Notes under the pieces: generated by a model
Seen by the model: only the letters and a program-made list of their open reading frames with translations
Database searches by the model: none
What the model was told of the DNA's origin: nothing
NCBI GenBank assembly: GCA_041660605.1
Contig: JBAZWB010000001.1
Span: forward strand, 137,295-201,294
Length of the DNA stretch: 64,000 bases
Origin: Patescibacteria group bacterium
Lineage (GTDB): Bacteria > Patescibacteriota > Patescibacteriia > UBA10025 > JAHIVO01
Reading direction: 5' to 3'
Shown here: piece after piece, positions 33,379 through 61,185 of the stretch
How positions within the stretch are numbered: position 1 is the first letter of the stretch
Layout of the letters: the number at the start of each line of letters is the position of its first letter
Program-made: the position numbers and the translations under genes

Positions 33379-36300
33379 GTGACTTTACAACGATTTTTCA
33401 ACAAAAACACGCCTAATTGGCTGACAAAACCAAAAAGGGGTAATAGGGGGAAAGAAATTGATTTTAAAAGCTATCCTGCGTTACTCACCATTGAGCAGGT
33501 TGGTGAGATTTTTAATATTCACGCAAACACCGTACGCAATTGGGACCGAACAGGCAAGCTTAAGGCGGTGAGAATGGGCAGCAGGCGTGACAGACGCTAT
33601 CCAAAAGAAATGGTGCAAAAAATATATCTGGAAATGCACCCAAAGGAAACGGAAGATAAAAAGGAATCAAACGAAAAGACAGCTTTACCTGCTCCGGAAG
33701 TCAGCAAATACATAATTCAACCCGGTTTTTCTTTTAATAAAATACGCCTGCTGTTAATCAGCAAGCGGTTTACTGTTTTTGTTTACTCCGTAATCATGGT
33801 GGCCGTAGCTTTTGTAACTGTTCAGGTTTCCTTTTTTGCTTATGTTTATACTATTCGTGCCGAGGAAAAGCCTCCGGAAGAATATACTCTGACCATTAAT
33901 CCTACTGTGGTAAAAGGCTGGCAAAATCCGGATAAGGCAAAAGAGATTGAAACCAAGACGAATTCTCCCATAAGTGATTTTACGGAAAAAAATGCCGCGA
34001 TTTTTCACAATAAGCCGGTAGTGTCGCCGACTGAAGCGCCAGCTGTCCCAATAAAAGCGGAAGAAGTTTTGCCGGCGGCTAACACTAACCATGAGACTAT
34101 AACTGACACCAATGTAAATATAAACACCGCTGTCCCACCCCCCAGTCCAGAGCCACCGCCAGCCAATTCTAATCTGAATCAGGCAGTCACGCCGGCCAAT
34201 ACCAATGTTAATGTAAATACAAATACCAACAGCAATAGCAATGCTAATGCGAATACTAATTCTGAGAGCGTTAACACTAATAGTGAGAATACCAATACCA
34301 ACTTAAATTCCAATTCCAACGCTAATACGGGGGTGGAATCTGATCTGAATGCAAATACTAATACCTCCGTACCTGTTGAGGGACAGCCGCAGGTTAAAGT
34401 TTTAGGCGAGGAAACCAGCCAGGTAGGCGAGGTAATAGAAACGGCGCAGGAGAATATTTTTGAAGCCAGCGGCTATGCCTTTCCCGATACGGTACCGGAA
34501 TTGGCGAAATTAAAAAGCGTGAAAATAATATACTCCCTGGCCGCTGATACTTATCCGGACAACGAGGACGTCATTACTTTGAGCTACTCCCTGGATAACG
34601 GGGATTCCTGGCAAACGGCGGATTCATTCGCCCTGCTGGATAATGTCAGTAACAGCACCCACGGCGGTTATTGGGAGGTATCTTTAAATAATATTGATAT
34701 AAAAGATTTTGCAAAGATCCGCGCACGCGTTTCTTATAACGCCGTACCTAGTGATAAAGACGCAAAAGCTTACCTCGATGGCATAATTCTGGAAGCGGTA
34801 GTCAAAAATCCTGAACCGGCCGTAGTTGAGATTCAAAACAGCGTTGAAATAGAAAAGACAGACGTCAAAATTGACGAGCAGCCGGTCGTCAGCGTGGCTG
34901 TCGAGCAGGAAAGTTTTTTCTCTTTTATTGGGGCAGCTTCACAGACGCGCGAAGTCAAGGACATTGAGCTGGTGGATCCTTCCGGTGAAGCTATCAAGGA
35001 GGTAAATTATGACCTGCAGGAAGTGCAGGAAGGAAAAACAATAAAAGCTGAATATGCGATTCAAACCGATAATTTTGACAAACCCGGACGCTATCAAGTA
35101 AAAATGCAGATAGAGCAGGACGGAGTTACCGAAGAAGTGACGCAGGAATTCAACTGGGGCGTATTGGCTATAAATCCCGACCAGTCTATTTACCAGGCGG
35201 GACAGCCAGCCATGCTCTCTATCGGCGTGCTGGATGAAACCGGAAATATGGTCTGCGACGCGGATGTCACCCTGGAGATTACCAATCCAGACGGAGAAGT
35301 GACCATAAAAAAAACCAGCGATGGCGGAATAACCGTCAGCCAGTACTGCACTTATAAAGGAGAATTCAAGGGTCCGGACTATTATACAGATTACATTCCG
35401 TCAGTCCCCGGTACTTATAAAATGAAATTATCGGCTACACATCACAGCGGCACCAATGTCATAAATGACAGTTTTGAAGCGCAATTATTCCCTGAATACA
35501 CCATCAAGCGGACCGGACCAACCCGCGTCTTCCCATATATTTATCAGCCTATGGTCCTGGAGGTAACTGCCCAAAAAGATTTTGAGGGAGAAATCACGGA
35601 AGTGGTGCCGGATGTTTTTGAAGTAAAAGACACCGATGACGCTCAGATGCGCAGGTTTACGAGCGGCACAGTAATATACAAGGAAATAGTTTGGCAGCGT
35701 GCTTTGGCCGCGGGGCAGACGATGAAATTAAGTTATAATTTCAAAACCCCGGAAAAAAGTCCGGCACTCTATTTCGTGGGTCCGGCCAGGGTAGGCGACT
35801 GGAATGAGGGGCGCGAGTGGCAGATGGCCATTGATGTGACTTATATGTACGTCCTGGCTAAGAACGCCTCTGCGCCGAGCGGATGGACTGACGATACGGC
35901 CACTTTTGATAATAAATATTTACGTGGCGCGGCGACGTTCAGCTCAACCGGTGGCGGTGCCGCGACGCACGCTCCCACGATCCACCATAATAATGTAAAT
36001 CCCTCCACTGATGCTGCTGGTACCACCTGTACACGCCGTTGCGGTGCCGTGGCGACTCTTGCCCATACTCATACGTCCAGTAACCCAACGATCGGTGATG
36101 CCAGTAATGATCCCGCTTATCACACTTTTTATGTCTGGAAAAACAATACCGGCGTCCCGGCCAATATCCCCCAGAATGCCTTTGGCTTTTTTGATGCCAA
36201 CCCGGGCGGTTCCTGGACACGACTTAGCGCGGCCGACAGCCGTTTAGTCAAACTGGACAATTCGCATACAACCGGCGGTACTGATACGCATTCACATACG

Positions 36301-51300: not shown

Positions 51301-53412
51301 TGGACTATTTCTGGCAATATTGATTTTACTGACGGGACTTACACGGCCACAGCAGACAATATTCTCAAGATGAACGGAACAGCTAAGGCCATCACTTCCG
51401 CCAGCAATGCCTTAAGTAAATTTGAAGTCTCCGGCGGCAGCGTTTCTACTGCAGATGCCTTGTTGGTCAATAAAACGCTCAATATTTCTGGCGGGGGATT
51501 TACGCAGGCAGCCAATGCCAACCTTACCGTGTATGGCAATTTTACGATCGCTATTGGCACGACATTCACCAACGCCTCGGGCACCGGCATCCTCATCTTA
51601 GACGGCAACCCCACGGCCAATACTTTCACGGATAACTCGTCCCCAAAACAGAACATGGGTGACGTACAAATTGGCTTGTCGCCGGGTACCACGGATCTAG
51701 CCAGCGATATGATCGCTAAGAAGTTGACGATTAACGATGGCGACATATTCAACACTAATGGTTATGATCTAAACATTGGTATCGGAGGGATTATTGTCGC
51801 TGCTGATGGTGGCTCAGGCGGAGGCACATTGGATGTTGACGATGACGTGGAAACAGACGGTACGGTTATGGAAACAGACGGCATCTTTGACTTAAAAAGT
51901 GGCGGTGATTTATTAAACAGCGGTGGGACAAACGTGGGTTCCTTGCTGAAATTTACCATGCCGGCAGCCTTAGCTGACGTAACCAGTGATTTAATAACTG
52001 CTGGCACTGGCTCGCTATATGATCTTGAAGTTGATGACGGAGCCGGAGATTATAATTTAATCGTTGAAGTTGAGGATCCATTGGATGTGGATAATAATAT
52101 TAACATTACTGGCGGTATTTTAGATACGAAAACCGGTGAGAGTAACGCTATTACTATTGGCGGCAGTTGGGCCAACAGCGATACGTTTACTGCCCGGTCT
52201 GGTACTGTGACGTTTGACGCAACGTCAGGCACGAAGACCGTAAACCCCGGAACGTCTCCTTTTTATGTGCTTACCTTTAACGGTGTTGGCGGCACCTGGC
52301 AACCGACCACTAATACGGTTACGGTGTCCAGTAATCTGAATGTTACCAACGGTACAGTGGACAACGAAACCAACGACCAGATCCTGGATATTGGCGGAAA
52401 TGTGGCTATCAGTTCTGGCGGAGTACTGCAGGCTTCCTCAACCGCCAGCTTTACTGTCGCTGGCAACTGGGCAAACAGCGGCGATTTCACTGATGGCACC
52501 GGGACAGTCACGCTCGATGGTACGGCGCAGCAGACGCTCTCCGGCCAGCTGACAGGCGCGAATGATCGCTTCTATAACCTGACGGTTACTAACGCGGGCG
52601 CTGCTGACCCTGACGTCATCTTTGATGCCAGCGCTGATACGGATAATAACTTCACGGCCGCAACGGCGGGTACGCAGCTTCAGTTCAAAGCTGGCAGTAC
52701 TTATGCGTTTGACAATATCGCCCTGGACGGCCAGGCAGCGGGTACCAGAGTTTTCCTGCGCTCTTCGTCATTGGGCACGCAGTGGAATATAAATGTCTCC
52801 GGTTCGCGTTCAGTCTCCAACACTAACGTGCGCGATTCATACGCCTGCGGCCAGCCGCCCGATATAGACGCCTCCGACGGCACGAATTTTGACGCTACCA
52901 ATAATAATTGCTGGTTCATTAATTCACTGACTTTTTCGATATCAGATGTAGCCATCGGTTTCGGTCCGCTGGGAGCCGGGGGAGCCCGCTGGGCGACCGG
53001 CGATGGCAATGGCACTGGCGCGCAGCCGGCCGTAGGCAGCGGAGCCCATGAATTGACTATCAGCAGCAATTCAGACAATGGTTACGCCATTACTTACTAC
53101 GGCACGACCCTGACTGGCGAGCATGGCACTATCAGCAATGCCACCATTGCCGGTGATGGCAATGGTATACCGGGGACTGAGCAGTTTGCGCTGTCAGCTT
53201 CTGCCTCTGGCGATGCGGTTATCCCCGTTGACTATCGGTATAGCAGCAATAACTATGGTTTTGTTGAAAATTCGCTCACTACATTAGTCTCTGAATCCGG
53301 GCCAACAGCTTCAGAAACAATTGATCTATATTATATAGCTAATATTGCGACGCAAACCGAAGCCGGAGAATATAGTACAGCAATAATATATATTGCCACC
53401 GCAACTTTCTAA
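33379..53412 (+). CDS. Giant surface protein (6677 aa): N-terminal excisionase-type HTH plus TM helix, Asn/Thr-rich linker, Ig-like and Thr/Gly/Ser/Asn-rich beta-helix-like super-repeats, C-terminal SCPU/Csu-pilin-like domain
   Basis: Single uninterrupted ORF of 20 kb. Repeated modules ASASGNTVDYGYAGAQTV..YHHL.LSGSG.KT (5 copies), ELHVWTGDTYDPGGTV.TNATGGD.HVDD (3-4 copies), SGTIYTDEGS..YNC.SNNLT..VKVNG (3 copies). Confidence 0.85.
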   Translation: MTLQRFFNKNTPNWLTKPKRGNRGKEIDFKSYPALLTIEQVGEIFNIHANTVRNWDRTGKLKAVRMGSRRDRRYPKEMVQKIYLEMHPKETEDKKESNEKTALPAPEVSKYIIQPGFSFNKIRLLLISKRFTVFVYSVIMVAVAFVTVQVSFFAYVYTIRAEEKPPEEYTLTINPTVVKGWQNPDKAKEIETKTNSPISDFTEKNAAIFHNKPVVSPTEAPAVPIKAEEVLPAANTNHETITDTNVNINTAVPPPSPEPPPANSNLNQAVTPANTNVNVNTNTNSNSNANANTNSESVNTNSENTNTNLNSNSNANTGVESDLNANTNTSVPVEGQPQVKVLGEETSQVGEVIETAQENIFEASGYAFPDTVPELAKLKSVKIIYSLAADTYPDNEDVITLSYSLDNGDSWQTADSFALLDNVSNSTHGGYWEVSLNNIDIKDFAKIRARVSYNAVPSDKDAKAYLDGIILEAVVKNPEPAVVEIQNSVEIEKTDVKIDEQPVVSVAVEQESFFSFIGAASQTREVKDIELVDPSGEAIKEVNYDLQEVQEGKTIKAEYAIQTDNFDKPGRYQVKMQIEQDGVTEEVTQEFNWGVLAINPDQSIYQAGQPAMLSIGVLDETGNMVCDADVTLEITNPDGEVTIKKTSDGGITVSQYCTYKGEFKGPDYYTDYIPSVPGTYKMKLSATHHSGTNVINDSFEAQLFPEYTIKRTGPTRVFPYIYQPMVLEVTAQKDFEGEITEVVPDVFEVKDTDDAQMRRFTSGTVIYKEIVWQRALAAGQTMKLSYNFKTPEKSPALYFVGPARVGDWNEGREWQMAIDVTYMYVLAKNASAPSGWTDDTATFDNKYLRGAATFSSTGGGAATHAPTIHHNNVNPSTDAAGTTCTRRCGAVATLAHTHTSSNPTIGDASNDPAYHTFYVWKNNTGVPANIPQNAFGFFDANPGGSWTRLSAADSRLVKLDNSHTTGGTDTHSHTVTWQSLAAASGSSSSLDPLLGDGTAASVHGHFAPAFGSTDSQTSVPQYVTTLIYEQTNATPPAIPTGYIGLFDADPGAGWTVISDGALEDYYQRFIRGDATTEGTKAGANTTDHAEVTSGASDAPDTNALGSVGTVYSGPNHTHTITTGFNTEDHTPSYVDFVVAQYTGASSTINLSGVAYQENESSPINGSSVNKTVNLLVNGAATACGGAACTDEITTSDGAWAITGITAVSGDIITVFLNDETEEGTTVFKSDGVTQTNINIFQNAVIVRNDTGTSITNANLESGDRDAGDNDIKFDVSSSNVTVDSGFELHVWTGDTYDPGGTVSTNATGGDVHVDDSATIYFDTATSQVGLGTIVDASATLNLDAATTFGGDVTINSTGTWNNTTANLSLTIPGSLQNNGTFNAGTGTYTFNGATKTFSGTTATTIPSVSVSGTLQNNGTLTVSSALAGGGTLTNGATGALHIDVAAASLTLTTLTASASGNTVDYGYAGAQTVKAVTYHHLSFSGSGAKTLTSLTTVNGDLTWSGTATGTSASSLIVGGNLVINDTANFSAGAVNLTVMGTTSITGTLTFNSSTGTKILTGAVTINANGTWTNSGNSALWFKGGLTNNSANTFTAGSGAYAFYTNDQAIGGTNAISIPNVNVPTITLTNNGTLTVTTQLTGSGGITNSATGALHIDAASFSLTTLTASASGNTVDYGYAGVQTVHDNTYHHLTLSGSGDKTMTTNTRTIGGNLTLSGTATATTNASGTTTVTGDVIINTGTTLTVAVAFVVNGGDITGDGTLTYTGTPIIYLNGTGNLGGATAWTFYSLNLAASGGTATTTAIGAGQITIASTLTLVYYYNAGNDTESFHHLNAGPKTWTLSGSGTPFIKNATFTPATSTFIYSGTGSTNITGATYNNLTLQPSSGTPTYTLADSTAYTIGGNLVMSSTANLTVSAGTSIITMTGTSNTITGGGQTIYDLTINPATAGTITLQTSGLTLTRNLIVSSGDIFSVGAIALTVTGTSTITGTINITSATGTKIFTGLVTVSTTTGVWNNSGNSAVTFRGGITNNNTFTAGSGVHTFDTNSQALTGTFSIPSVTVTSPTTLTNDGTLTISTALSGTGGLTNSATGTLNIGGTSGITTITASASGNTVNYTGGVQTVHINTYHHLTLSGSGAKTMTSVQTVNGNLTLSGTVTATISSSFGVGLDVIINTGTTLTVAAQLIVSGGDITGDGTMTYTGTPTVYLIGTGSFGGANAWSFYNLTFAISSGAATTTTATGAGQITVASVLALSYWFNGDSDVNHYLDAGSKTWTLSGSGTPFPYNRAYAQLIPNASTFIYSGTSATNVRYAPYNNLTLSGAATYTQLTGGCTVSGALNVANGATFSIPTSMTVTNSGTFTLNTSGTVSGAGTVKFTSTSAGPGTGGTLSAVVQYDSSGGSIASTTFDARTYVGAVDIYGNNSSNSVTAASGTYTFSGNLSITQDGTGTTTLDLNTSDPTVGVTGTTTIDASTILSASSASAMSLGDDFTNNGTFTHNSGSVALTTTATATITGNTTFNNLSVSGIGAAKTITFTASSVTTVVGTWTVTGTAGNLITLQSSSSPTQWTINPTVASVSYVQVSDSNNTGVAFCATYSTDTGDNNTNWSVSSGGVCTTINVSGTIYTDEGSTVYNCSSNNLTVRIKVNGVGSYSADCTAAGGTFAVSNVSVGAINDVVTVFLDNETPNAVTITKTADTTSNLTDINLYQNKAIVRHESASAITNANLDQYDFANEGSDGDIGFTVTTNNITVASGWELHVWTGKTYNPGGTVATNATGGDLHVDDSGVFTTGGTTTVGANLAIDTGATMTAGAYDLTVTGTTGITGTMTISSATGTKILTGSVTVNSGGTWTNSGNSNVEFQGGLTNNSANTFTAGTGGYAFDTNSQAIGGTNAISIPSVTVTGVTLTNNGTLTVTTALAGSGGITNATTGALHIDVAAASFTLTTLTASASGNTVDYGYAGAQTVKATTYHHLILSTSGAKTMTNVTTINGNLTMTGTVTASTSTSGQTTVAGDVSIGTGTTLTVDTANLVVNGGDITGDGTLTYNGTPTVSLDGNGSFGGNTAWSFWNLTFADAACATLYSNATGSGGITVNNVMTTASQPGACIEVDEVSNAHDLYAGSKTWTIAGSGTSYVKNRGVLTPETSTFIYSGTGSTTVALGPYNNLTLQPSTGTPTYTLQNSTYSIGGNLVIVPDITAGTSTVNMTGTSNTITGGGRSIYNLTINPATAGTITLQTSGLTVAHNLIVSSGDIFSVGAVDLTVTGTSTITGTLTLSSATGTKIFTGLVTVSTTTGTWNNSGNSAITFQGGLTNNNVFTAGTGVYTFDTNDQAIGGTSTIAIPSVTVTTITLTNNGTLTVTTALAGTGGITNDTTGSLHIDVAAASLTLTTLTATASGNTVDYGYAGAQTVHDNSYHHLTLSGSGDKTMPAGTKNIGGNLTLSGTATATTYSGVGTTSVTGDVSIGTGTTLTIAKDILVSGGDITGDGNLTYINTPIVYLSGAGNFGGATNWSFYDLIFSISSSPNTTTTAIGAGQITVASVLTISSWNDGFGETYYHNLDAGSKTWTLSGSGTPFTGNATLTPSASTFVYSGTSATTVDAGPYYNLSLQPASPPDYVIYTIGDTTVGGNLVMSTLAQKLITQVGTSTVTMTGTSNTITSGGQSLYNLTINPSSAGTITVQTDDFQVDGALDIADNDTFSIPTGRTVTSIGAITLNTSGTVSGAGTLSLDYRSTGLGTGGTVSCIVRFDTTSASIGAGTFDARTYGGLVQLYNNQQTLDRVITAPATGTFVFSGGLTMRVNNQYGELTADFDDTTDPTVTVTGSVTIPAGGTFLAPSSTTLSVGASFSNSGTFTHNSGTVALTTSAAATITGNTTFNNLSVTGIGAAKAITFTGSSVTTVAGTWTVTGTAGNLITLQSSDTNNWTINPAAASVSYASISRSTNTGISFCAIYSTNGGNNAGWNISIGPICESVSITGIIYTDEGSTLYNCASNNLTIAVKVNGYGTYSSTCTTADGEYVLSDVMVDGTNDVLTVFLNNETPNAVAVSKIADTPAGINNLNLYQDKVIVRHESSSAMTNANLDKYDFVNEGSDGDIGFTVTTNNITVASGWELHVWTGDTYDPGGTVTTNATGGDLHVDDSAVVYLDTATNAIGRDILVDGSATLNIDADTTVSGGDITISGSGATVTKSTGTPTVTITGTGSIGGGTTPSISFYSLTVGTATAASTTAANNISVTNTLNVDTSDSLAIASGMTVTHSGATLTLNGTISGAGRLTYKSSTAFPTGGTISSILRFDSSSNNQDLSSRTYGGNVEIYGNNASNIVTAASGTYTISGSLTTSQDGTGATALDLNANAPNLTVNGALTVGANTILSSTANILDVKGNLTNNGTFSNNGGTVRLSGTSQQTMSGSWNGAQLADLTVTNNSGSDPDTSPSVIFSSSVSLNGTFTAATGGTKLRFNTGITFWAYGLTLTGSAGNLVYLRSSTSGTEVTFEYGGLAQSVTYADVKDMDNGGGTVINATGTGNVNSGNNTNWDFGSIRVAGTIYSNDGVTPYNCSSDNLTIKVSTNGGAVNSGTCTAANGTFVMTNITKPGAIDQPIALLIDSGETPQATSVTLAASTLGDANMDLYQNRLIIDSETGTTMTDILLDTADNSGDAGIRYAIASGNLSVSSGLGLWVWTGKNFTPGGTVTTPASGTAAGGAGDVNIAASATLNMAANALSVGGDFTNSGTFTITSGQATTFTATGTDFAIDDGTATFQNIIFNGSGGGWSFSSAVTLSGDLTMTAGMLSGTSDITVNGNDITGNGTINLTGGTVSLPDTGSLGGDAAWTFYNLSLTQASFTDKTTTAIGSGSITVSNVLRGYSAYDAGSDHDYFHILAAGSKTWILSGTGTPFANGGLLVGDTSTFRYTGNGATNIASAEDATTNYYYNLELKPSGTATYTLPDAIVSTPQRVNGNLIIGNGTNSVTVDGTTNNPYYNIGGNVTCTTGAGTNTVQTGTATWAIAGDFDLSNCDVFTATAGNTITLSGTSKTYTHNNLAGNPYNLNITGTIAESTPGTNYIDNNLTISGTFTSTAATLGVGNTFTNNGTFNANNGDVVFSGSSGIIAGSSTTTFFGLFVQPTGSGTVTVNGSNPTVTDDLSVATGDTLSISSGQILSHTGGTIDLLGIMSGDGLLRITNGSSGPGTTGTLNVDVRYENGISETTLDARTYGGDVEFYIDSEALMSASSRMASGTYNFNGNLYINAVNNANISLEGNFNNPTVNVTGNIDFLGSGPGMEIIQTGTGTWTVGGNIDFTDGTYTATTGNTLTMNGADATINTGGNSLYNFSTSGTGIITTASAITVTNDVSIGTGSTLRANTDTSVAGDLTGDGTLTYTSGTPTVTMSNTGNIGGATAWTFYNLTLSADASSDYTTTAAGIGNINIDNVLTTESADCGVDCFRYHYLNGGLKTWTLTGSGTPFINNGSLTPASSTFVFSGTSATTVAGATYNNLLLLPPSGTPTYTLAGSQYIAGDFSMAAGLTMDAGAYTVTMAGTNNSIISNGQTLYNLTIDPATTGTITVQTGNLTVSNNLRIEAGDTLAIDNGVTLAHTGNDLIILDSASTIAGPGRLTYRSATAFPTDGTLSAGLILRLDTTSTNQTMSSRTDYQLVEIDNSGATGGRTVTIGSGTAQTVTTSGALSVLSSGSGSVELAGATYNPAVNIGGDLSYTAGGGTKTITTGTGTWTVSGNVNLTNGTFTKSTGHTLVMNGSSKTLTSAAQILENLTLSGTITLANATHTVNGSLTLSGTVTAGSSNVTMTGTSNTIVGGGNILSTLTINPSSTGTITLQTSDLTVSGTLSVAADDTLSIDTSRTVTAVDTLVINGTISGAGRLTFKGYTFPGTGTVSSIVRMDATDAGSGQNIGARTFGGLVEIYNNSASSNRIVSLQSGTFNFSGDVNLTAANNQNVTLDGSGNDSTVNITGNLDFTGAGSGSEIIASGTGTWTISGNIDFTDGTYTATADNILKMNGTAKAITSASNALSKFEVSGGSVSTADALLVNKTLNISGGGFTQAANANLTVYGNFTIAIGTTFTNASGTGILILDGNPTANTFTDNSSPKQNMGDVQIGLSPGTTDLASDMIAKKLTINDGDIFNTNGYDLNIGIGGIIVAADGGSGGGTLDVDDDVETDGTVMETDGIFDLKSGGDLLNSGGTNVGSLLKFTMPAALADVTSDLITAGTGSLYDLEVDDGAGDYNLIVEVEDPLDVDNNINITGGILDTKTGESNAITIGGSWANSDTFTARSGTVTFDATSGTKTVNPGTSPFYVLTFNGVGGTWQPTTNTVTVSSNLNVTNGTVDNETNDQILDIGGNVAISSGGVLQASSTASFTVAGNWANSGDFTDGTGTVTLDGTAQQTLSGQLTGANDRFYNLTVTNAGAADPDVIFDASADTDNNFTAATAGTQLQFKAGSTYAFDNIALDGQAAGTRVFLRSSSLGTQWNINVSGSRSVSNTNVRDSYACGQPPDIDASDGTNFDATNNNCWFINSLTFSISDVAIGFGPLGAGGARWATGDGNGTGAQPAVGSGAHELTISSNSDNGYAITYYGTTLTGEHGTISNATIAGDGNGIPGTEQFALSASASGDAVIPVDYRYSSNNYGFVENSLTTLVSESGPTASETIDLYYIANIATQTEAGEYSTAIIYIATATF

Positions 53413-53558
53413 TATTAGCCATTGTCTTTGACACATTAAAGTATTTATGATATACTATCTGCAGATAACGTGGTTAAATGTGGTTTTTCTCGGATTTTTT
53501 AATAAAACCGAAAAAATTAAATTAATATATAAAAATTAATAATTAAAATGAGCAAAAT

Positions 53559-54626
53559 ATGGTTAAACTAAAACGATTGTATGTCGTAATTTTAGCTCTT
53601 TTTTTAGTGGTAGCGTTTAACGTACCAGCCCTACCAGCCTGGGCTGCCAGTCTGTCTGATATGTCAGACACCTTGACTACGGCTGCTCAGAATACTGTTG
53701 CAAATCATACTATTCTCTTCACCACCCCGACTGGCGTTCCTGCAGGGCAGACAATCACCTTAACATTTGATACGGATTTTCAGGATCTGGCGGGTATCAC
53801 TGAGAATGACGTGGATATTGCCGATGACACCGTAGATTTAACAACTGCTGCCGACTGTACCGGCGCTGAACAGGCTAGCGTAGCCATGGCCAGCCCGACT
53901 TTAACGATTACCATCTGCGCTGGTGACGGTGGAGATATCGCGGCTGCCAGTAATGTAACTATTGAAATAGGTACTAATGCTACTGCCTCCGGTATTGGCG
54001 CTAATCAGATAAAGAATCCAGCCGCCGCGGAAACTTCCATGATTGCTTTAGCCGGCACGATGGCTGATTCCGGCACTCTTTCGGTAGTAACAATTGCAGA
54101 CGATAGCGTCGCGGTTACCGCCACGGTAAATCCTAGTATTACTTTTTCAATAACAGACACGGCTATTGGTTTTGGCGCTTTGACTTCAGCCAATGCCCGT
54201 TTTGCTACTGCAGATGGTAACGGCTCTGATACTGACAGCACCGCTGCCTTTACTATGGATGTATCCACAAATTCAACAAATGGTTATGCCATTACATATA
54301 ATGGTTCAACGCTGACTAGCGGAGCAGATACCATTACTGTAGCCAATATTACCAATGATGCAAATGGAACTGCTAATACGGAAGAGTTCGGCATGGGCTT
54401 GTCAGCCAGCGGAGACGCGACAGTTGCCGCTGCCTATGATCACAATGCGACAGCAGGCAATCGCGACTGGGCATTTATCGATGCCACGACCACCACGATT
54501 GTTTCCGAAAACGGCCCAACCGCCACGGAAACCATCAGCGCTTTCTTCCTGGCGAACATTTCCGGCAATACCGAAGCAGGCAGCTATTCAACCGCGATAA
54601 CCTATATTGCCACCGCCACTTTTTAG
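53559..54626 (+). CDS. Secreted protein (355 aa) whose C-terminal ~165 aa is homologous to the C-terminus of the giant protein
   Basis: Signal peptide (MVKLKRLYVVILALFLVVAFNVPALPAWAAS); C-terminus ...NGYAITYNGSTLTSG...EAGSYSTAITYIATATF versus giant ...NGYAITYYGTTLTGE...EAGEYSTAIIYIATATF. Confidence 0.8.
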   Translation: MVKLKRLYVVILALFLVVAFNVPALPAWAASLSDMSDTLTTAAQNTVANHTILFTTPTGVPAGQTITLTFDTDFQDLAGITENDVDIADDTVDLTTAADCTGAEQASVAMASPTLTITICAGDGGDIAAASNVTIEIGTNATASGIGANQIKNPAAAETSMIALAGTMADSGTLSVVTIADDSVAVTATVNPSITFSITDTAIGFGALTSANARFATADGNGSDTDSTAAFTMDVSTNSTNGYAITYNGSTLTSGADTITVANITNDANGTANTEEFGMGLSASGDATVAAAYDHNATAGNRDWAFIDATTTTIVSENGPTATETISAFFLANISGNTEAGSYSTAITYIATATF

Positions 54627-54708
54627 CCGTGAACAAGCTTTTTGCTCTTCCTAACCTTAGGTAAAGGATACAGGAGGGAGGGTAGACATAATTTAAATAA
54701 TTAACCCC

Positions 54709-55638
54709 ATGCTTATGTCGAAAAAAAATATTATCGCTTTCAGCGCTATCCTGTTCTTTGCCTTTTTGGTGCTGCCGAAGATTTCGGCTGCACTGGAAGT
54801 AACGCCCGCTATACGCGAGGTTGATCTGGCTAAGGGAGAGAAGACCGTGGTCATGATTGAACTGCAGAATGAGGCCACAGAAACCATGCAATTAAACACG
54901 CAGGTGGTCAATTTTACGGCTAAAGATGAGATTTCCGGCGAGCCGGAATACAATCTGACCGGTACGCCTACTGGTATTGCTACCTGGACTACTGTACAGG
55001 CAGGCCCGATAGTTATCCAGCCTTCCGGCAAAGTAGAAGTCCCGGTAACTTTTGATACGCCTGCCACTGCTACACCCGGCGGCCACTACGTCGGGGTGGT
55101 TTTTAGTTTTGTAGAATCTGCCGCTGCGGCAACCAATAACAGCCTGAAGATTGAGTCAAAAGTGGCAGTACCAATATTAGCGACTGTCGCGGGCAACTTT
55201 ACGGAAAGCGCCAGGATTGTTGCTTTCAAAACAAATAAGACTAATTATACTTCCGGCCCGGTTAAATTTACCCTGCGTTATGAAAATACCGGCGCTGTTC
55301 ACCTGAAGCCTACCGGTAAAGTCACCGTAACCAGCATGTTCGGCAAGGTGGTGAAGGAAGCTACCATTAATACCGAATTAAGCGCAGTCCTGCCGGGGAC
55401 TATCAGGCAGTATGACGTCGCCAGCTGGAAAGACCTAGGCAGTGCTTTTGGCAAATATACCGCCAAGGTCACTCTGACATCAAGCGGCGTAGTCACTAAT
55501 GACACTTACGATTTTTGGGTATTTTCAACCACCGGCATTGTTATCGCGGTTGTCATATTATTAGTGGTTATGATCCTGATAGTTTTACTGATTAAGGCTT
55601 TAACCAAGAAAAAAACAGAAGCCCCGGCTGCTAAATAG
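54709..55638 (+). CDS. Cell-surface protein with signal peptide, beta-rich ectodomain of about 260 aa, C-terminal TM anchor and Lys-rich tail (paralog 1)
   Basis: N-terminal signal peptide, C-terminal IVIAVVILLVVMILIVLLIKALTKKKTEAPAAK; shares PGGHY and NTGAVHLKPTGKVTV motifs with the next gene. Confidence 0.75.
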   Translation: MLMSKKNIIAFSAILFFAFLVLPKISAALEVTPAIREVDLAKGEKTVVMIELQNEATETMQLNTQVVNFTAKDEISGEPEYNLTGTPTGIATWTTVQAGPIVIQPSGKVEVPVTFDTPATATPGGHYVGVVFSFVESAAAATNNSLKIESKVAVPILATVAGNFTESARIVAFKTNKTNYTSGPVKFTLRYENTGAVHLKPTGKVTVTSMFGKVVKEATINTELSAVLPGTIRQYDVASWKDLGSAFGKYTAKVTLTSSGVVTNDTYDFWVFSTTGIVIAVVILLVVMILIVLLIKALTKKKTEAPAAK

Positions 55639-55653
55639 CTTTTATAATAAGTT

Positions 55654-56661
55654 TTGTGTATGCATTGCATTGTGAAAAAAATTAATTTTCGCCTGATCTT
55701 CCTTTTTGCATTTGTTGTCGTTGGGACTCTGCTTTTGGGAAATGGAGCGCAAGCCGTGACGCTTATTCCGCCGTCGTTGGAAATTGGCTTAAAACCGGGC
55801 GCTGAATATGACACAGTTATAAAGCTTTTTAACGAAACTTCAAATACCATCAGTTTATATACTGAAGTAACCAATTTTTCCGCTAAGGGAGAAACCGGTC
55901 AGCCGGAATTTGATTTTGGCGGTGAGCTAATCGGCCTGGCAAAATGGATAAACGTGGAAAAAGGCCCGATCGTCATTGAGCCGGGAAAACGTTATGAAGT
56001 TCCGGTGGCCATCAAGACTCCTGTTGACGCCGATCCGGGCGGCCATTATGCGACCTTGTTTTTCAGCTCTTCTCCTCCGGAAGAAGGCCAGCTGCGCATT
56101 GCCTCAAAGGTAGGTACGCTGATCCTAGCGCGAGTCGACGGGGAAATAAAGGAAGCAGGAAGCATCACTGAATTCAGCGCTAGCAAAAAAACTTTTTCGA
56201 GTCTGCCGGTTGAATTTACCATTCGCTTCAGTAATTCCGGAAATGTCCATCTGAAGCCCACAGGAAAGATTGCTGTAAAAAATATTTTTGGGAAGGAAAC
56301 AGTTTCTATTGATTTTAACGCCAGCAAAGGAGCCACTCTGCCAAATACCGTACGCATGTATCAGGCTACCTGGGACAAGGGGCTGATCATTGATAAATCG
56401 GGCAATGTCTGGTCAGATTTCTGGCAGGGTTACAGCAATGAAAAAAACAATTTTGCCCTGGGCAAATATACCGCTGAATTAAGCATTACTGCTGGTACGC
56501 TGGAGAGCGTCAAGGACACCGCTAAGGTGGGTTTCTGGGTATTGCCCTGGCACATGATGCTGGTCTGGGGCTTACTAGCGGTTTTAGCGGTATTATTGAT
56601 TATATTTTTGATCAAGAAATATAACGCATGGATATTAAAAAAAGCGAAATCACAGCAATAA
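55654..56661 (+). CDS. Cell-surface protein with signal peptide and C-terminal TM anchor (paralog 2)
   Basis: DPGGHYATLFF, NSGNVHLKPTGKIAV; C-terminal LLAVLAVLLIIFLIKKYN...KKAKSQQ. Confidence 0.75.
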   Translation: MCMHCIVKKINFRLIFLFAFVVVGTLLLGNGAQAVTLIPPSLEIGLKPGAEYDTVIKLFNETSNTISLYTEVTNFSAKGETGQPEFDFGGELIGLAKWINVEKGPIVIEPGKRYEVPVAIKTPVDADPGGHYATLFFSSSPPEEGQLRIASKVGTLILARVDGEIKEAGSITEFSASKKTFSSLPVEFTIRFSNSGNVHLKPTGKIAVKNIFGKETVSIDFNASKGATLPNTVRMYQATWDKGLIIDKSGNVWSDFWQGYSNEKNNFALGKYTAELSITAGTLESVKDTAKVGFWVLPWHMMLVWGLLAVLAVLLIIFLIKKYNAWILKKAKSQQ

Positions 56662-56664
56662 GTA

Positions 56665-57576
56665 ATGAAAAAATCGTGCCCGTCATCAGTTAAATATTTT
56701 CGTATACTTTACGTGTTTGTCCCGCTATTAGTATTGATAGCGGGATATTCATTTGCCGAAGCGCAAGTGTCGCGTCAGGTTACGGTCACGGCCACAGTGC
56801 CGGAAAAACCGCCCATAGAAGAGCCGGATACTATTGTAATTTTCCGCGGCATCGCTTACCCCTCATCCACGGTCACTATTAATCAGGACGGTTCGGCTAT
56901 TTCTATTATAACTACCAATACCCAGGCGCAATTTGACGTTTCAGCCAAGGTGGATCCGGGCACTTACACTTTCACCATTATCGGCGTGGATACTGACGGG
57001 GTTGAGGGCAAGGTTTCCAATTTTACTTTGATGCTTTCAGAAGGGACGACTACCACCATCAGCGGGATATTTCTAGGACCGACTATTTCCATTGACGATA
57101 CCGTCATCGGGCCCGGAGAAACCGCCACCCTGGCCGGCACTACGGTGCCTGACAGCGAGGTTAATGTTACCGTCAGCTCGATTGGTACGGCCGCCGCCGC
57201 CGGCGATCCCCAGATTGCCGTGCATATCGCCAGTGCTGATTCAAACGGCCGCTGGCTGCAGCTTTTAAATGCCGACGAAATGGAAGCGGGAGATTATGAA
57301 GCAAAGGCGCAGTCAACAGAACCGCAGAATCATGCGGTTTCTGAATTCAGTAAAATCGTCGGTTTCCAGGTACAGGGGCAGACAGAGCCTGACCAATGCG
57401 CCGGCGCCTTGCCGGGCGATATCAACTGCGATACTTTTGTCAATCTGGTGGATTTCAGTATTTTGCTTTTTTATTGGGACAGCTCCAGCCCGGCTAATCC
57501 GCGGGCCGACATAAATACCGACGGGGTCGTTAATATTATTGATTTTAGCATTATGCTTTTTTACTGGACTGGATAA
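56665..57576 (+). CDS. Secreted Ig-like-domain protein with a C-terminal dockerin (two Ca-binding-loop-like repeats)
   Basis: GDINCDTFVNLVDFSILLFYW and ADINTDGVVNIIDFSIMLFYW form a dockerin type I-like duplicated segment. Confidence 0.7.
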   Translation: MKKSCPSSVKYFRILYVFVPLLVLIAGYSFAEAQVSRQVTVTATVPEKPPIEEPDTIVIFRGIAYPSSTVTINQDGSAISIITTNTQAQFDVSAKVDPGTYTFTIIGVDTDGVEGKVSNFTLMLSEGTTTTISGIFLGPTISIDDTVIGPGETATLAGTTVPDSEVNVTVSSIGTAAAAGDPQIAVHIASADSNGRWLQLLNADEMEAGDYEAKAQSTEPQNHAVSEFSKIVGFQVQGQTEPDQCAGALPGDINCDTFVNLVDFSILLFYWDSSSPANPRADINTDGVVNIIDFSIMLFYWTG

Positions 57577-57580
57577 ATAT

Positions 57581-58711
57581 ATGACCAAAAAAAATATTAA
57601 AATTCTGATTTTTTCCTTAATCTTCATCGGCGCTTTTTTATTGGCCGGACGGGTCAGCGCGGCAACTCTTTCCATCCAGCCGTCGCAGGATGAATACGCC
57701 ATCGGAGAAACATTCATTGTCGAAGTGCATTTAAAAGGAGAAGGGGAAATTGTCAATGCGGTGAAAGCGACCATAACGTATCCCAGTGATTTATTGGAGG
57801 TGACGGAATTATCAAAAGGGGGTTCGTTTTTATCGCTTTGGGCGCAAGAGCCAGCCAATGAATCAAGCGGCGGAGTTATCAGTCTGGCTGGCGGGATACC
57901 GAACGGCAGTTATGTGGTAGATGGCAGAGTGCTGGCTATCACTTTCCGCACCATTGCTCCGGGCGGAGCGGAAATCGCTTTTGACCAGAACCAGACGGGC
58001 GTTTATCTGAATGACGGCCATGGTACGCCGGCAAATTTAACTCTGAAATCAGGCATCTTCAACATTGCCGATCGCACTAACGTGAAAATAACTTCACCGA
58101 CCCATCCTGACGAAGAGGCCTGGTACCAGAATAAAACATTTACGGTAAATTGGAGCCCGAAAGAAGGGGCGAAGTACAGCTACTTACTGACCAATGATCC
58201 TGATAAAGCCCCGGATGAAGTGCAGGAATTCGCCGAGGGCGTAGTAACATTCAAGGATTTGCCGGACGGAATTTCATATTTTATTTTAAATGAGCAACTC
58301 CCGGGAAAATCGTGGCAGATCGTGGGCAAACGGCGGGCGATGGTGGATACTGTCCTGCCCTCGCCGATTGAAACGATTGTCAGCCGGGACAGGACATTGT
58401 ATGATGGGAAATATTTCTTGATTTTTTCTGCCGTGGACAGGACTTCCGGCGTGGATCATTATGACATTATTGAAGATGGAAAGAAATCCAGCCATGCCGT
58501 TTCCCCCTACATTTTATCAGATCAAACAAGGCAGGAAATGATAGAGATTCGCGCTTTTGATAAAGCGGGTAACGTCAGAACCGCGGTTTTGGGGGACAAG
58601 AGGGGGAGCCTAGAGGAAGAGAGGGGTTTCACCATAGCCCTGCTGATGTTTATCGGCGCCTTAATTCTCTTGCTGGTTTTTGTTCTGGTTAGGACCAGGT
58701 CAAAAAAATAA
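57581..58711 (+). CDS. Cohesin-domain surface protein with C-terminal TM anchor (start moved to MTKKNIKIL)
   Basis: N-terminal ATLSIQPSQDEYAIGETFIVEVHLKGEGEIVNAVKATITYPSDLLEVTELSKGGSF is cohesin-like; C-terminal hydrophobic segment plus RTRSKK. Confidence 0.65.
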   Translation: MTKKNIKILIFSLIFIGAFLLAGRVSAATLSIQPSQDEYAIGETFIVEVHLKGEGEIVNAVKATITYPSDLLEVTELSKGGSFLSLWAQEPANESSGGVISLAGGIPNGSYVVDGRVLAITFRTIAPGGAEIAFDQNQTGVYLNDGHGTPANLTLKSGIFNIADRTNVKITSPTHPDEEAWYQNKTFTVNWSPKEGAKYSYLLTNDPDKAPDEVQEFAEGVVTFKDLPDGISYFILNEQLPGKSWQIVGKRRAMVDTVLPSPIETIVSRDRTLYDGKYFLIFSAVDRTSGVDHYDIIEDGKKSSHAVSPYILSDQTRQEMIEIRAFDKAGNVRTAVLGDKRGSLEEERGFTIALLMFIGALILLLVFVLVRTRSKK

Positions 58712-58722
58712 CAGACCAGATT

Positions 58723-61185
58723 ATGAGGAGGTTAATATTAATATTTTTTTTTGCAGCGGCCTTAGTTTTATTTTTGCCTGATTCCGCCTCGGCCGCCTCT
58801 TTATATCTAAGCCCGGCGAGCGCCAGCCATACGGTCGGCGACAGTTTTAACGTTACCGTCGGGGTAAATACCGCCAATGCCGCCATTAATTCCGCCATGG
58901 CGACAGTCTCTTTTACCAATGATTTGCTGGAAGTAACGTCGGTTTCGCAAACGGGAATTTTCAGCCTCTGGCCGGTAACACCGTCGTATTCCAATGGCAG
59001 CGGGACGGTCAGTTTTGCCGGCGGCCTGCCTAATCCCGGTTATAACGGATCTTCGGGAACCATTATATCCATAAGCTTCAAAGCAAAAGCAGTAGGCACG
59101 GCCAGGGCCAGCATCGGTTCGGCCAGTGTCCTGGCTAATGACGGATTTGGTACAAACGTCCTCACTTCTTCCGGCAGCGGTACGTATACGATAACCGCAG
59201 CCGCACAGCCAAAACCCGAGCCCGAGCCGGAACCGCAGCCTGAGCTTAAATTCCCGGATGTCCCGAAAATAACTTCATCAACGCATCCTGAGCAGGTATT
59301 TTGGTATTCTAATAATAATCCGTCATTTACCTGGAATAAGCAGGAGGGGGTGGTCGGCTTCAGTTATGCTTTTGATGATAGCTCAGGCACTGTACCCGAT
59401 AAAAATCGCGATTCAACATCTAATTCCATCAGTTATACCAGCACCGGCGATGGTGTCTGGTATTTTCACGTGCGCGCCCAAAATGCCGATGGCTGGGGAG
59501 ACACCGGGCATTATAAAGTGCAGATAGACACCGCCCCACCGCGGGCTTTTGCCATTGAGCTCTTGGACGGCAAGCGCACCACCGTGACCTCGCCCCGCCT
59601 GTCATTTTCCACTACAGATGATAAGTCAGGAGTGCACCATTACAGTTTATCAATAAATAGCCAGGCGCCAATCAGCATTGATGTCGGCAAGACCACGCCT
59701 TATACTCTGGCAAATCTGGCCGTTGGCGATTATAAAGTGGTCGCTACAGCTTATGACAACGCCAGCAACCAGACACAAGCGACTAATAATTTTACGATTT
59801 ATAAGCCCGAGGAAAAAACTCCGGAGGAGAAGAAAGAAGAAAAGGAAAAGTCCGAGGAAGTTCTGCCGCCGGTCGCAAAAACGCTAAAGAAAATTCAGGA
59901 GGCATTGCCGGCGCCTATCAGAAAAATTACGGAGCAGATCGGCAAAACTGTCCAGCAAATAAAAGAAAATGAAACAGTCAGTAAGACGGTGGACCGGGTC
60001 GTGCAGCCGGTAGTGGCCACTTCCGCGGTGGTAGCTGTCACCGGCCTGGCGGCAACAGCCGGCTCTACCCAGTTTTTCAATTTATTGTATTTATTCTTCC
60101 GTTTCGGCTATTTCTGGCTGGTGCCGATATCTTTCGGCAAAAAAAGGAAAGCCTGGGGCACTGTCTTCGACAGCCTGACCGGCCGGCCGATTTCCCGGGC
60201 AGTGGTGAGAATTTTTTCGCGCGAATTCAATAAGCTGCGTGAAAGCCAGATAACCGACAAGGAAGGCCGTTTCGGCTTTATCGTCGATGAGGGCGTGTAT
60301 TATCTGACCGTCACCCGCCCCGGCTATGTCTTCCCTTCGCACATATTGGAGACCGCGGCCATCAGCCAGTACATTAATATTTATCGGGGCAATACCATTA
60401 GTATTGATGATGGCAATAAGGGCACCTTGGCTTTGAATATCCCCGTTGATCCGAATATGAGGGAAATCAGCAGTGGCCGCGTAAATTGGCTGAAGATAAT
60501 CAGCTTTATTGGAAATCTGCTGGAAAAAATGAACACTCCGCTGTTGATTGGCGGTACGATATTAAGCTGGTTAGCCCTGATTATTGAGCCAAAATTGATA
60601 AATTACCTGCTACTGGGACTGTACGCCGCACTTTTGTTTTTAAGGTACATAACTGCCCGCCATTTAGGCCGTTCTTGGGGCGTGGTCAAGGATAAATATA
60701 CCGGTGCGCCGATCGAACAGGCGGTGGTCCGCATCTACAACGTGAATACCGGCAATCTCTTATGGACGCGCGTGACCAATCAGCAGGGCCAGTTCAATGG
60801 CTTGCTGTCGCCTGGCAGATATTATCTGGTAATAATAAAATACGGCTATCATATGTTCCAGAGCAAACCGGTGAATGTCTCCAGGAAACGCGGTTACATC
60901 AGGTTCACGGCTGAATTAATTTCCAAGAAAGCGCAGCTGCCGCCGGTCAGCGGCAAGGGCGACCAGGATATACACCTGGAATCGATTTCCGTCCCAGGTG
61001 CATACAAGGATAATACGGCACCGCGGCCGGTGCGCGAGGAAAACGTTTTTCAGCCGCCGGTGCCGCGGCGTCCGTCAGCCTCAGGCAAAAATGTTTTTGA
61101 ACCCCCTAAGCCTATAAACGGACTGGGGCAGTCCGGGAATCAAACAGCAGCGCCGAAAAGCCGCCGTTCGGCAAAAAAGAAATAA
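58723..61185 (+). CDS. Large surface protein: cohesin-like domain, shared ITSxTHP domain, Pro/Glu linker, polytopic TM region and two carboxypeptidase-regulatory-like (CarboxypepD_reg) domains
   Basis: SLYLSPASASHTVGDSFNVTVGVNT...ATVSFTNDLLEVTSVSQTG is cohesin-like; GTVFDSLTGRPISRAVVRIF...DKEGRFGF and GVVKDKYTGAPIEQAVVRIYN...NQQGQFNG are CarboxypepD_reg-like. Confidence 0.65.
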   Translation: MRRLILIFFFAAALVLFLPDSASAASLYLSPASASHTVGDSFNVTVGVNTANAAINSAMATVSFTNDLLEVTSVSQTGIFSLWPVTPSYSNGSGTVSFAGGLPNPGYNGSSGTIISISFKAKAVGTARASIGSASVLANDGFGTNVLTSSGSGTYTITAAAQPKPEPEPEPQPELKFPDVPKITSSTHPEQVFWYSNNNPSFTWNKQEGVVGFSYAFDDSSGTVPDKNRDSTSNSISYTSTGDGVWYFHVRAQNADGWGDTGHYKVQIDTAPPRAFAIELLDGKRTTVTSPRLSFSTTDDKSGVHHYSLSINSQAPISIDVGKTTPYTLANLAVGDYKVVATAYDNASNQTQATNNFTIYKPEEKTPEEKKEEKEKSEEVLPPVAKTLKKIQEALPAPIRKITEQIGKTVQQIKENETVSKTVDRVVQPVVATSAVVAVTGLAATAGSTQFFNLLYLFFRFGYFWLVPISFGKKRKAWGTVFDSLTGRPISRAVVRIFSREFNKLRESQITDKEGRFGFIVDEGVYYLTVTRPGYVFPSHILETAAISQYINIYRGNTISIDDGNKGTLALNIPVDPNMREISSGRVNWLKIISFIGNLLEKMNTPLLIGGTILSWLALIIEPKLINYLLLGLYAALLFLRYITARHLGRSWGVVKDKYTGAPIEQAVVRIYNVNTGNLLWTRVTNQQGQFNGLLSPGRYYLVIIKYGYHMFQSKPVNVSRKRGYIRFTAELISKKAQLPPVSGKGDQDIHLESISVPGAYKDNTAPRPVREENVFQPPVPRRPSASGKNVFEPPKPINGLGQSGNQTAAPKSRRSAKKK

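Follow-up and report, generated by a model that had tools for sequence, protein, structure and literature searches.

A dockerin protein and membrane-anchored cohesin proteins as the probable attachment module of a Pam-type pilus in a Kerfeldbacteria-like bacterium

Three adjacent genes in a 64-kb window of Patescibacteria DNA encode a dockerin protein of 303 amino acids (aa) and two cohesin proteins of 376 and 820 aa (the window is the whole stretch analyzed, taken from a metagenome-assembled genome (MAG) of an uncultivated organism known solely in that form). On balance, the trio is read as the membrane-attachment module of a Pam-type donor-strand-exchange pilus in a Kerfeldbacteria-like bacterium belonging to the CPR (candidate phyla radiation), and the dockerin protein is proposed, with the same moderate confidence, to be the donor-only last subunit of that pilus, plugging the fibre into the membrane cohesins. 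The evidence consists of the identities of the dockerin and cohesin domains, a gene cassette conserved across related loci, a pilin acceptor domain at the C-terminus of a giant protein encoded upstream, and homology between a strand of the dockerin protein and the linker strand of the pilin.

Gene layout and existing annotation

The trio follows the genes for the giant protein, the pilin, and two chaperone-like proteins (A and B) on the same strand (Table 1), and the intergenic gaps from chaperone-like protein B through the second cohesin protein measure only 3, 4, and 11 bp between the open reading frames (ORFs) of the window. The original prediction, made from the sequence before this analysis, had placed dockerin and cohesin genes side by side immediately downstream of the giant gene; side by side they are, but three genes (53559-56661) lie between them and the giant gene. 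Public NCBI records hold the exact 303-aa and 376-aa proteins, from a Patescibacteria MAG. Because they are already named there 'dockerin type I repeat-containing protein' and 'cohesin domain-containing protein', respectively, the domain calls are not new. The dockerin and cohesin domains of this locus are ordinary members of their superfamilies, and what is new is the genomic context. The nearest related loci were found in Candidatus Kerfeldbacteria and in unclassified Patescibacteria MAGs, Kerfeldbacteria being placed in the Parcubacteria group by the NCBI taxonomy.

Pilin, giant protein and chaperone-like proteins

The Pam pilus of Ca. Mycosynbacter amalyticus was described in 2026 from one cultivated species, and cryogenic electron microscopy (cryo-EM) revealed that its pilins polymerise by insertion of a linker strand into the C-terminal domain of the next subunit (10.64898/2026.03.03.709456). 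From AlphaFold predictions, its operon was further proposed to encode chaperones anchored in the membrane (PamC/D), a tip that can only accept (PamT), and PamR, a terminator comprised of an N-terminal strand, two fibronectin type III (FnIII) domains, and a transmembrane helix (10.64898/2026.03.03.709456). The 355-aa protein of the window matched the NCBIfam model NF058581 (CPR_Pam_pilin_C, 'Pam pilus system pilin subunit') at 71.9 bits, above the cut-off of 55, as did 16 of 16 pilin orthologues (best E-value 1.3e-22). Within the linker strand of these pilins, V186 and V190 are invariant.

The same acceptor domain closes the giant protein, whose last 165 aa share 51% identity with pilin aa 193-355 (E-value 2e-43). 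In the giant proteins of 17 loci, a segment NNxCWxxxSLTF that is unrelated to the linker stands where the pilins carry their linker strand. Several long near-repeated blocks (e.g. '...TLTASASGNTVDYGYAGAQTV...HHLTLSGSG.KT...') were observed between positions 36000 and 52900 of the giant gene, and the GC content of this repeat region is 0.51-0.54 vs 0.41-0.50 across the remaining window. The N-terminus of the giant protein (33379-33849) holds a helix-turn-helix domain (HTH_17/MerR-like, aa 35-80, 29.3 bits vs a cut-off of 27) and a hydrophobic segment (aa 131-157), and HTH_17 was also found on the giant protein of one related locus (L022:1-7707).

The two chaperone-like proteins are paralogues of one another (36% identity; reciprocal second-best BLAST matches), and one or two copies of the family are present in each Pam-type cassette examined. 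Across 25 members of the family, 18 weakly match WxLIP_PGBD/DUF916 (best E-value 1e-4) and one matches PapD_N (E-value 0.021).

A pilin donor strand on the dockerin protein

Directly after its signal peptide, which ends in AEA and is followed by QV, the dockerin protein carries QVSRQVTVTATVPEKPP, a copy of the pilin strand (VTVTATVP), and it contains no pilin acceptor domain. Across 46 homologues (41-71% identity), V45 of this strand is invariant, and V39 and A43 are nearly so. Although the monomer model shows the segment as unstructured, it is conserved as strongly as the folded domains. A hidden Markov model (HMM) of the 13-residue linker, built from 16 pilins only, was run on all ORFs of the window and of 22 related loci (1,223 ORFs, 264,982 aa). 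Pilins ranked first; ranks 24-26, 28-37, and 39-40 were all dockerin proteins, matched at residues ~30-47, and a single unrelated ORF interrupted the series at rank 38. No giant protein of the window or the 22 loci was matched by the linker HMM. A donor-strand regular expression (V.V[ST]A.V, two matches in the window) had been composed post hoc and was replaced by the pilin-only HMM.

Furthermore, a profile of the strand and the tandem immunoglobulin (Ig)-like domains, with the dockerin left out, was searched against 1.84 billion representative sequences and yielded 4,531 matches. The best 150 of these include 86 short proteins, 84 of which finish in a dockerin. Eight chimeric proteins (P0187, P0139, P0197, P0221, P0289, P0148, P0167, and P0168) join a pilin N-domain and linker strand to tandem Ig domains and a dockerin. 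They are ~440-460 aa long, begin with a signal peptide, and match a pilin N-domain HMM with E-values from 4.6e-37 to 1.5e-9. The alignment of P0187 to the window pilin spans aa 29-186, reaching as far as the strand (E-value 5e-18), and its alignment to the window dockerin protein spans aa 57-301 (E-value 3e-54). In the cassettes of two related loci (L023 and L024), such chimeras exactly fill the slot of the dockerin gene, and the dockerin protein of the window is therefore best seen as a putative pilin derivative, in which the acceptor domain would have been replaced by tandem Ig domains and a dockerin, and the N-domain lost, with the donor strand left.

The dockerin protein

The original prediction held that a duplicated dockerin-like segment closes the 303-aa protein, and this was confirmed. 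With 29.9 bits against a gathering cut-off of 22.9, Pfam Dockerin_1 (PF00404) was detected on residues 250-297, and it is present in almost all of the 120 homologues listed. The two repeats, D252-W271 (DINCDTFVNLVD followed by FSILLFYW) and D282-W301 (DINTDGVVNIID followed by FSIMLFYW), each consist of a D-x-N-x-D-x(6)-D loop and a helix, i.e. the tandem EF-hand-like loop and helix of ~22 residues that defines a type I dockerin. The helices lie at residues 261-269 and 291-301 of the AlphaFold model, in a block with a predicted local distance difference test (pLDDT) score of 93-97, and a phmmer search against the PDB matched the solved cellulosomal dockerin 2y3n_B (E-value 7e-4). With a conservation of 0.76, the dockerin module is the best-conserved part of the protein. 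A nearly invariant cysteine pair (C245/C255, 46 homologues) flanks the first calcium loop (CAGALPGDINCD) and may form a disulfide clasp.

The model of the whole protein (pLDDT 87.4) places a signal-peptide helix at residues 9-29, an unstructured stretch at 30-56, and beta-sandwiches at 57-136 and 153-236. According to Foldseek, the tandem beta-sandwiches resemble tandem Ig/FN3 pairs (7dm0_A, 3pdd, and others), and weak Pfam matches to Big_13 and Big_6 were also observed. An orthologue HMM detected exactly one dockerin gene per related locus; across all frames of the 64-kb window, and across 10 kb around the relatives, no further dockerin came to light.

Cohesin anchor proteins

The claim that the next two genes start with a cohesin-like domain was upheld by structural and family-level comparisons. 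The Pfam search that had been suggested as a check gave a divided result, placing the dockerin above its cut-off and recovering the Cohesin model (PF00963) from the two cohesin families, but not above its cut-off from the window proteins themselves. At E-values up to 0.01, Cohesin was matched by 36 of the 42 family members of the 376-aa protein (best 9.4e-10) and by 7 of the 20 orthologues of the 820-aa protein (best 2e-8). The AlphaFold model of the 376-aa protein has a pLDDT of 92.9, and its N-terminal domain superposes on many solved cohesins with TM-scores of 0.70-0.77 and a root-mean-square deviation (rmsd) of 2.6-3.6 Å. The best superpositions (6kge_A, 5nrm_A, and others) reach TM-scores of 0.75-0.77, an rmsd of 2.6-3.0 Å, and E-values of 1e-8 to 1e-9, and the top Foldseek match was 2w1n, a non-cellulosomal cohesin and FN3 pair. 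Against PDB sequences, the single 376-aa sequence gave no significant cohesin match and its profile reached 4ums_A with an E-value of only 0.17. The family-level Pfam matches, the confident model, and the Foldseek superposition together settle the cohesin fold of the 376-aa protein. The 820-aa protein is its paralogue over the first ~350 residues (BLASTP E-value 4e-37; hhalign probability 100%, E-value 1.7e-70), and the predicted beta-sandwich (jelly-roll) fold of the cohesins extends to it through this hhalign alignment.

Both proteins continue from the cohesin into a THP[DE]..WY domain and a third, Ig-like domain. The second domain reads KITSPTHPDEEAWY in one protein and KITSSTHPEQVFWY in the other, and the shared motif noticed at the outset (ITS.THP[DE]E.WY.N...W) proved to be a family trait, its S, H, W, Y, and W being conserved at 90% or more in each cohesin family. 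The motifs NDGxGT and GG[IL]PN are likewise kept in both paralogue families. Both proteins had been said to end in membrane anchors, which is correct for the 376-aa protein (aa 350-370) but not for the 820-aa protein, whose hydrophilic tail lies past internal hydrophobic segments.

The part of the 820-aa protein with CarboxypepD_reg domains and multiple transmembrane segments is present in 10 of 20 family members; the remaining members are split into, or replaced by, shorter cohesin paralogues. In the window (59998-61185), each CarboxypepD_reg domain comes after a basic stretch just past hydrophobic segments. These domains are usually extracytoplasmic, and by the positive-inside rule they could here be cytoplasmic.

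No glycoside hydrolase was detected among the scanned window ORFs of at least 150 aa, and no glycoside hydrolase or carbohydrate-binding module was found in the window scans, in agreement with the non-cellulolytic context that had been asserted.

Conservation of the cassette

Related loci were sought with an 18-sequence alignment, and 27 were compared, 16 from species-representative genomes and 11 around individual homologues. The order giant gene, one or two pilin genes, one or two chaperone-like genes, one dockerin gene, and cohesin genes is kept in 24 of the 27, down to about 36-45% identity. The cohesin part of the cassette consists of a ~375-aa protein with a cohesin and a transmembrane helix, followed by one or two more cohesin paralogues. 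The dockerin gene adjoins two or three cohesin genes in all 27 loci, distant CPR lineages included. One cassette has two pilin genes upstream and an extra pair of pilin and chaperone-like genes downstream of the cohesin genes (L021:13467-15617).

The trio was also observed in other CPR lineages (L003:7916-11752, L025:8001-11610, L026:8001-11916, and L027:7935-11626), among them a relative named Ca. Microsyncoccus archaeolyticus. In these four loci, the tandem Ig domains of the dockerin protein are preceded by a Cys-rich CG[DN]G...GE.CD module and a Gly run, and in L027 a single 871-aa protein fuses two cohesin domains. L003 was considered as a strand-less negative control; it proved ambiguous and was left unused, the L025 and L027 relatives starting with a strand-like segment before the Cys-rich module. 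The tandem-Ig and dockerin family as a whole is large and has varied N-terminal heads, with at least 934 relatives of the L003 type.

These loci bear on the possibility of a generic surface display, in which membrane cohesins would show the 303-aa protein or other dockerin proteins and the pilus neighbourhood would reflect co-regulation only. Such a role fits the sound domain calls, the trios that lack adjacent pilin genes (L003, L025, and L026), and the size and varied heads of the dockerin family (the 4,531 profile matches and the L003-type relatives). However, it leaves unexplained the copy of a pilin strand at the mature N-terminus, the conservation of an unstructured segment at the level of folded domains, and the pilin N-domain and dockerin chimeras in orthologous slots. 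The absence of a second dockerin from the window and from the 10 kb around any relative also argues against it, and we regard it as unlikely. Since the dockerin protein has a pilin donor strand, and in some genomes a whole pilin N-domain, the tethered object is probably a pilus and not a lone cargo protein.

Proposed mechanism and alternatives

In the proposed mechanism, the giant protein, having an acceptor domain only, would enter first and end up distal. Copies of the 355-aa pilin would come next, each inserting its linker strand into the acceptor domain of the preceding subunit, and their addition would be aided by the two membrane-anchored chaperone-like proteins. The 303-aa dockerin protein would enter last, its mature N-terminus (QVTVTATVP) serving as a copy of the pilin donor strand, and it would end the chain because it is without an acceptor domain. 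Its C-terminal, calcium-type dockerin would then plug into one of the two membrane-anchored proteins at its outer end, where the cohesin sits, and two Ig-like stalk domains would keep that cohesin off the membrane. Dockerin protein and cohesin anchor may thus represent two non-covalent pieces replacing the single transmembrane terminator PamR proposed for Mycosynbacter amalyticus. That a membrane cohesin receives the neighbouring dockerin protein is the most economical reading of the trio. The surface-docking pair of the original prediction, with a tethered dockerin protein in a non-cellulolytic setting, is retained in its domains and its context. It is not, however, a free-standing device beside the giant protein, but the last part of a pilus cassette. 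We infer the order of the subunits, which of the cohesins binds, and the fold of the chaperone-like proteins.

Several points weigh against this proposal. Strand insertion and cohesin-dockerin binding are both inferred, and the Pam assembly model is itself based on AlphaFold predictions (10.64898/2026.03.03.709456). The 376-aa protein scored 20.6 bits against Pfam Cohesin, under the cut-off of 24.1, and the 820-aa protein gave no direct match. Among the best 150 of the 4,531 profile matches, no short protein (86 in all) ends in a transmembrane helix. With no such relative among them, the idea that the dockerin protein is a homologue of PamR was dropped, and the link to PamR is one of analogy, not homology. 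A profile of the chaperone-like family matched nothing significant among solved structures, and the family has no significant sequence match to PapD or FimC; given this empty structure search and the weak DUF916 matches in Pfam, a PapD fold is not claimed. As L003, L025, and L026 have the trio but no pilin gene next to it, the docking pair may also serve other cargo, and the proposal does not account for the two or three cohesin paralogues that accompany each dockerin. Finally, if the helix-turn-helix domain and hydrophobic segment of the giant protein were an uncleaved anchor, the giant protein could not be an unattached tip, and both ends of the fibre would be held.

The surplus of cohesin paralogues would suit a different role, in which the cohesin proteins, notably the multi-pass 820-aa one, form an assembly platform that substitutes for an usher and recruits the dockerin subunit transiently to the site of assembly, the finished fibre being held or released otherwise. 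The complex membrane part of the 820-aa protein is consistent with this, as is the finding of no dedicated trans-envelope machinery for Pam pili (10.64898/2026.03.03.709456). However, the CarboxypepD_reg/multi-transmembrane part is dispensable for the cassette, because only 10 of 20 family members have it, and nothing usher-like or ATPase-like was found. In addition, the cohesin-dockerin pairs known to us, chiefly from cellulosomes, are stable attachments, and a transient platform is considered improbable. Little credence is given to the notion that the two folds do not bind each other, with a calcium-stabilised dockerin binding the host envelope or cell wall and the cohesin folds binding other ligands: the window cohesins do fall under the Pfam cut-off and the dockerin helices (DFSILLFYW) are unusually hydrophobic relative to cellulosomal ones, but strict adjacency of dockerin and cohesin genes is seen in 27 of 27 loci (one of them with a protein that fuses two cohesins), no region of its protein is more conserved than the dockerin, and the same surface motifs recur in both cohesin families.

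Other features of the window

The features of the locus are listed in Table 1. The giant gene and the pilin gene are 146 bp apart, and a near-consensus sigma-70-like site (TTGACA, 17 nt, TATACT, with a TG upstream; 11 of 12 matches) lies between them at 53428-53456. This site was the sole exception in a sigma-70 promoter and terminator scan that otherwise remained at background level, and it suggests that the genes from pilin to cohesins can be transcribed apart from the giant gene. Two further ORFs, 30890-32905 (671 aa) and 14562-15485 (307 aa), have no Pfam match at E-values up to 0.01. The 671-aa protein is encoded directly upstream of the giant gene and has a hydrophobic segment at its N-terminus.

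Table 1. Features of the proposed pilus and attachment locus (window coordinates; aa, residues of the protein concerned).
Feature	Position (nt)	Strand	Remarks
Giant protein, 6,677 aa	33379-53412	+	Proposed distal acceptor-only subunit
Giant protein, C-terminal Pam-pilin acceptor domain (last ~165 aa)	52924-53409	+	No donor strand ahead
Pam-type pilin, 355 aa	53559-54626	+	Signal peptide, N-domain, linker strand, C-terminal acceptor domain (aa 193-355)
Pilin linker/donor strand DDSVAVTATVNPS (aa 181-193)	54099-54137	+	
Chaperone-like protein A, 309 aa	54709-55638	+	Signal peptide, ectodomain of ~250-270 aa, C-terminal transmembrane helix aa 277-295 (hydropathy)
Chaperone-like protein B, 335 aa	55654-56661	+	Signal peptide, ectodomain, C-terminal transmembrane helix aa 302-320
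Dockerin protein gene	56665-57576	+	ORF of 303 aa
Dockerin protein, mature N-terminus: donor-strand-like QVSRQVTVTATV (aa 34-45) and Pro-rich spacer PEKPPIEEPD (aa 46-55)	56764-56832	+	
Dockerin protein, two tandem Ig/FnIII-like beta-sandwich domains (aa 57-136, 153-236)	56833-57372	+	AlphaFold, Foldseek
Dockerin protein, type I dockerin module (aa 245-303)	57397-57573	+	Repeat 1, nt 57418-57477; repeat 2, nt 57508-57567
Cohesin anchor 1 gene	57581-58711	+	ORF of 376 aa; alternative TTG start at 57539
Cohesin anchor 1, cohesin (aa 28-166), after the signal peptide	57662-58078	+	
Cohesin anchor 1, THPDE-WY domain (aa 167-255) and Ig-like domain (aa 256-340)			
Cohesin anchor 1, transmembrane helix (aa 350-370)	58628-58690	+	Hydropathy; basic tail after
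Cohesin anchor 2 gene	58723-61185	+	ORF of 820 aa
Cohesin anchor 2, cohesin (aa 25-160)	58795-59202	+	Ectodomain has the same three domains as anchor 1
Cohesin anchor 2, hydrophobic segments (aa ~426-472, 603-643)			
Cohesin anchor 2, two CarboxypepD_reg domains (aa ~478-539 and 652-721)			71.5 bits
Cohesin anchor 2, tail of ~100 residues			Hydrophilic, basic, Pro- and Lys-rich

Significance

A large part of bacterial diversity lies in the CPR, whose members live attached to host cells. To our knowledge, it is barely known how their surface fibres are built and how these hold on to a cell without an outer membrane. Donor-strand exchange and cohesin-dockerin docking, each a well-studied principle, come together at this locus in a group that is poorly understood. 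If the proposal is true, the Pam system reaches into the Parcubacteria group, giant proteins can be recognized as subunits of pili, and the many 'cohesin' and 'dockerin' annotations in CPR genomes gain a concrete job. The plug and socket of the cellulosome would have been recruited as a pilus anchor. It is tentatively suggested, at somewhat less than even confidence, that this holds across a large part of the CPR, i.e. that the last fibre subunit swapped its acceptor domain for a dockerin and that integral membrane cohesins provide the sockets, giving plug-in fibres (here with a 6,677-aa protein as the tip) on alternative anchors, the two or three cohesin paralogues, that are perhaps released or exchanged. 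In that case it would be the first natural use of a cohesin-dockerin pair in pilus biogenesis and a general form of CPR surface display, with dockerin proteins that bear different heads. No description of this combination of a pilus with a cohesin-dockerin pair was found in the searchable literature, where cohesins and dockerins of CPR bacteria receive passing mentions only and nothing relates them to pili. The Pam preprint makes no mention of cohesin or dockerin (10.64898/2026.03.03.709456).

Comparison with known systems

The closest counterpart is the Pam system (NF058581/NF058579). The pilin of the window has the same N-domain, linker donor strand, and acceptor domain, above the NCBIfam cut-off; the chaperone-like proteins share the PamC/PamD architecture with its C-terminal transmembrane helix; signal peptides are present throughout, and there is no usher. 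Both systems also include an acceptor-only subunit (cf. PamT) and, as read here, a donor-only last subunit with two tandem Ig/FnIII-like domains (cf. PamR). In contrast to the single-domain tip of the Pam pilus, the acceptor-only subunit of the window measures 6,677 aa. Furthermore, the last subunit finishes in a dockerin without a transmembrane segment, and separate cohesin proteins would be the membrane anchor; the pilin acceptor domain and linker strand characteristic of Pam pili are found here, but a terminator of PamR form is not. The source also differs, being Kerfeldbacteria-like and of the Parcubacteria group, whereas the preprint deals mainly with Saccharimonadia and Microgenomatia.

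A more distant likeness is seen in the WxL clusters of Firmicutes, which encode a small WxL protein, a large WxL protein, and a WxLIP of DUF916-DUF3324-transmembrane architecture (PMC10599100). WxLIP has two Ig domains and a transmembrane helix at its C-terminus, and insertion of a strand into the WxL C-terminal domain has been predicted (PMC10599100). The gene logic is that of the window: the small subunit corresponds to the pilin, the large protein, which shares the C-terminal domain of the small one, to the giant protein, and the two-Ig transmembrane protein to the chaperone-like proteins. In contrast, no WxL motifs and no Pfam WxL match are present here, the similarity is marginal (best E-value 1e-4), and cohesin or dockerin modules are not described for WxL clusters. 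An evolutionary link between Pam pili and WxL clusters, which the Pam preprint does not discuss, is possible.

Cohesin and dockerin modules are widespread in non-cellulolytic organisms. In the toxin complex of Clostridium perfringens (GH84C/GH33; 2w1n, 2vo8), single cohesin and dockerin modules likewise serve attachment outside cellulose degradation. The modules join secreted glycoside hydrolases there, whereas the locus described here involves no enzyme, has its cohesin on an integral membrane protein, and has its dockerin on a protein that appears to be derived from a pilin. The type I cohesins of OlpA and OlpC from Clostridium thermocellum (3ul4, 4dh2; TM-scores 0.71-0.75) resemble those of the window in that a surface-anchored N-terminal cohesin receives a dockerin partner. 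Anchoring scaffoldins of cellulosomes are, however, held by S-layer homology (SLH) domains, where the window protein has a transmembrane helix. The locus is not a cellulosome: each protein has one cohesin, the one dockerin is on a non-enzymatic protein, and there is no multi-cohesin scaffoldin.

With chaperone-usher pili (Pap/Fim, terminator PapH), the proposed pilus shares donor-strand exchange and a donate-only subunit that ends polymerisation at the base. It differs from them in belonging to a monoderm-like cell without an outer-membrane usher, in its membrane-anchored chaperone-like proteins, and in a terminator that would be fixed by a cohesin-dockerin joint.

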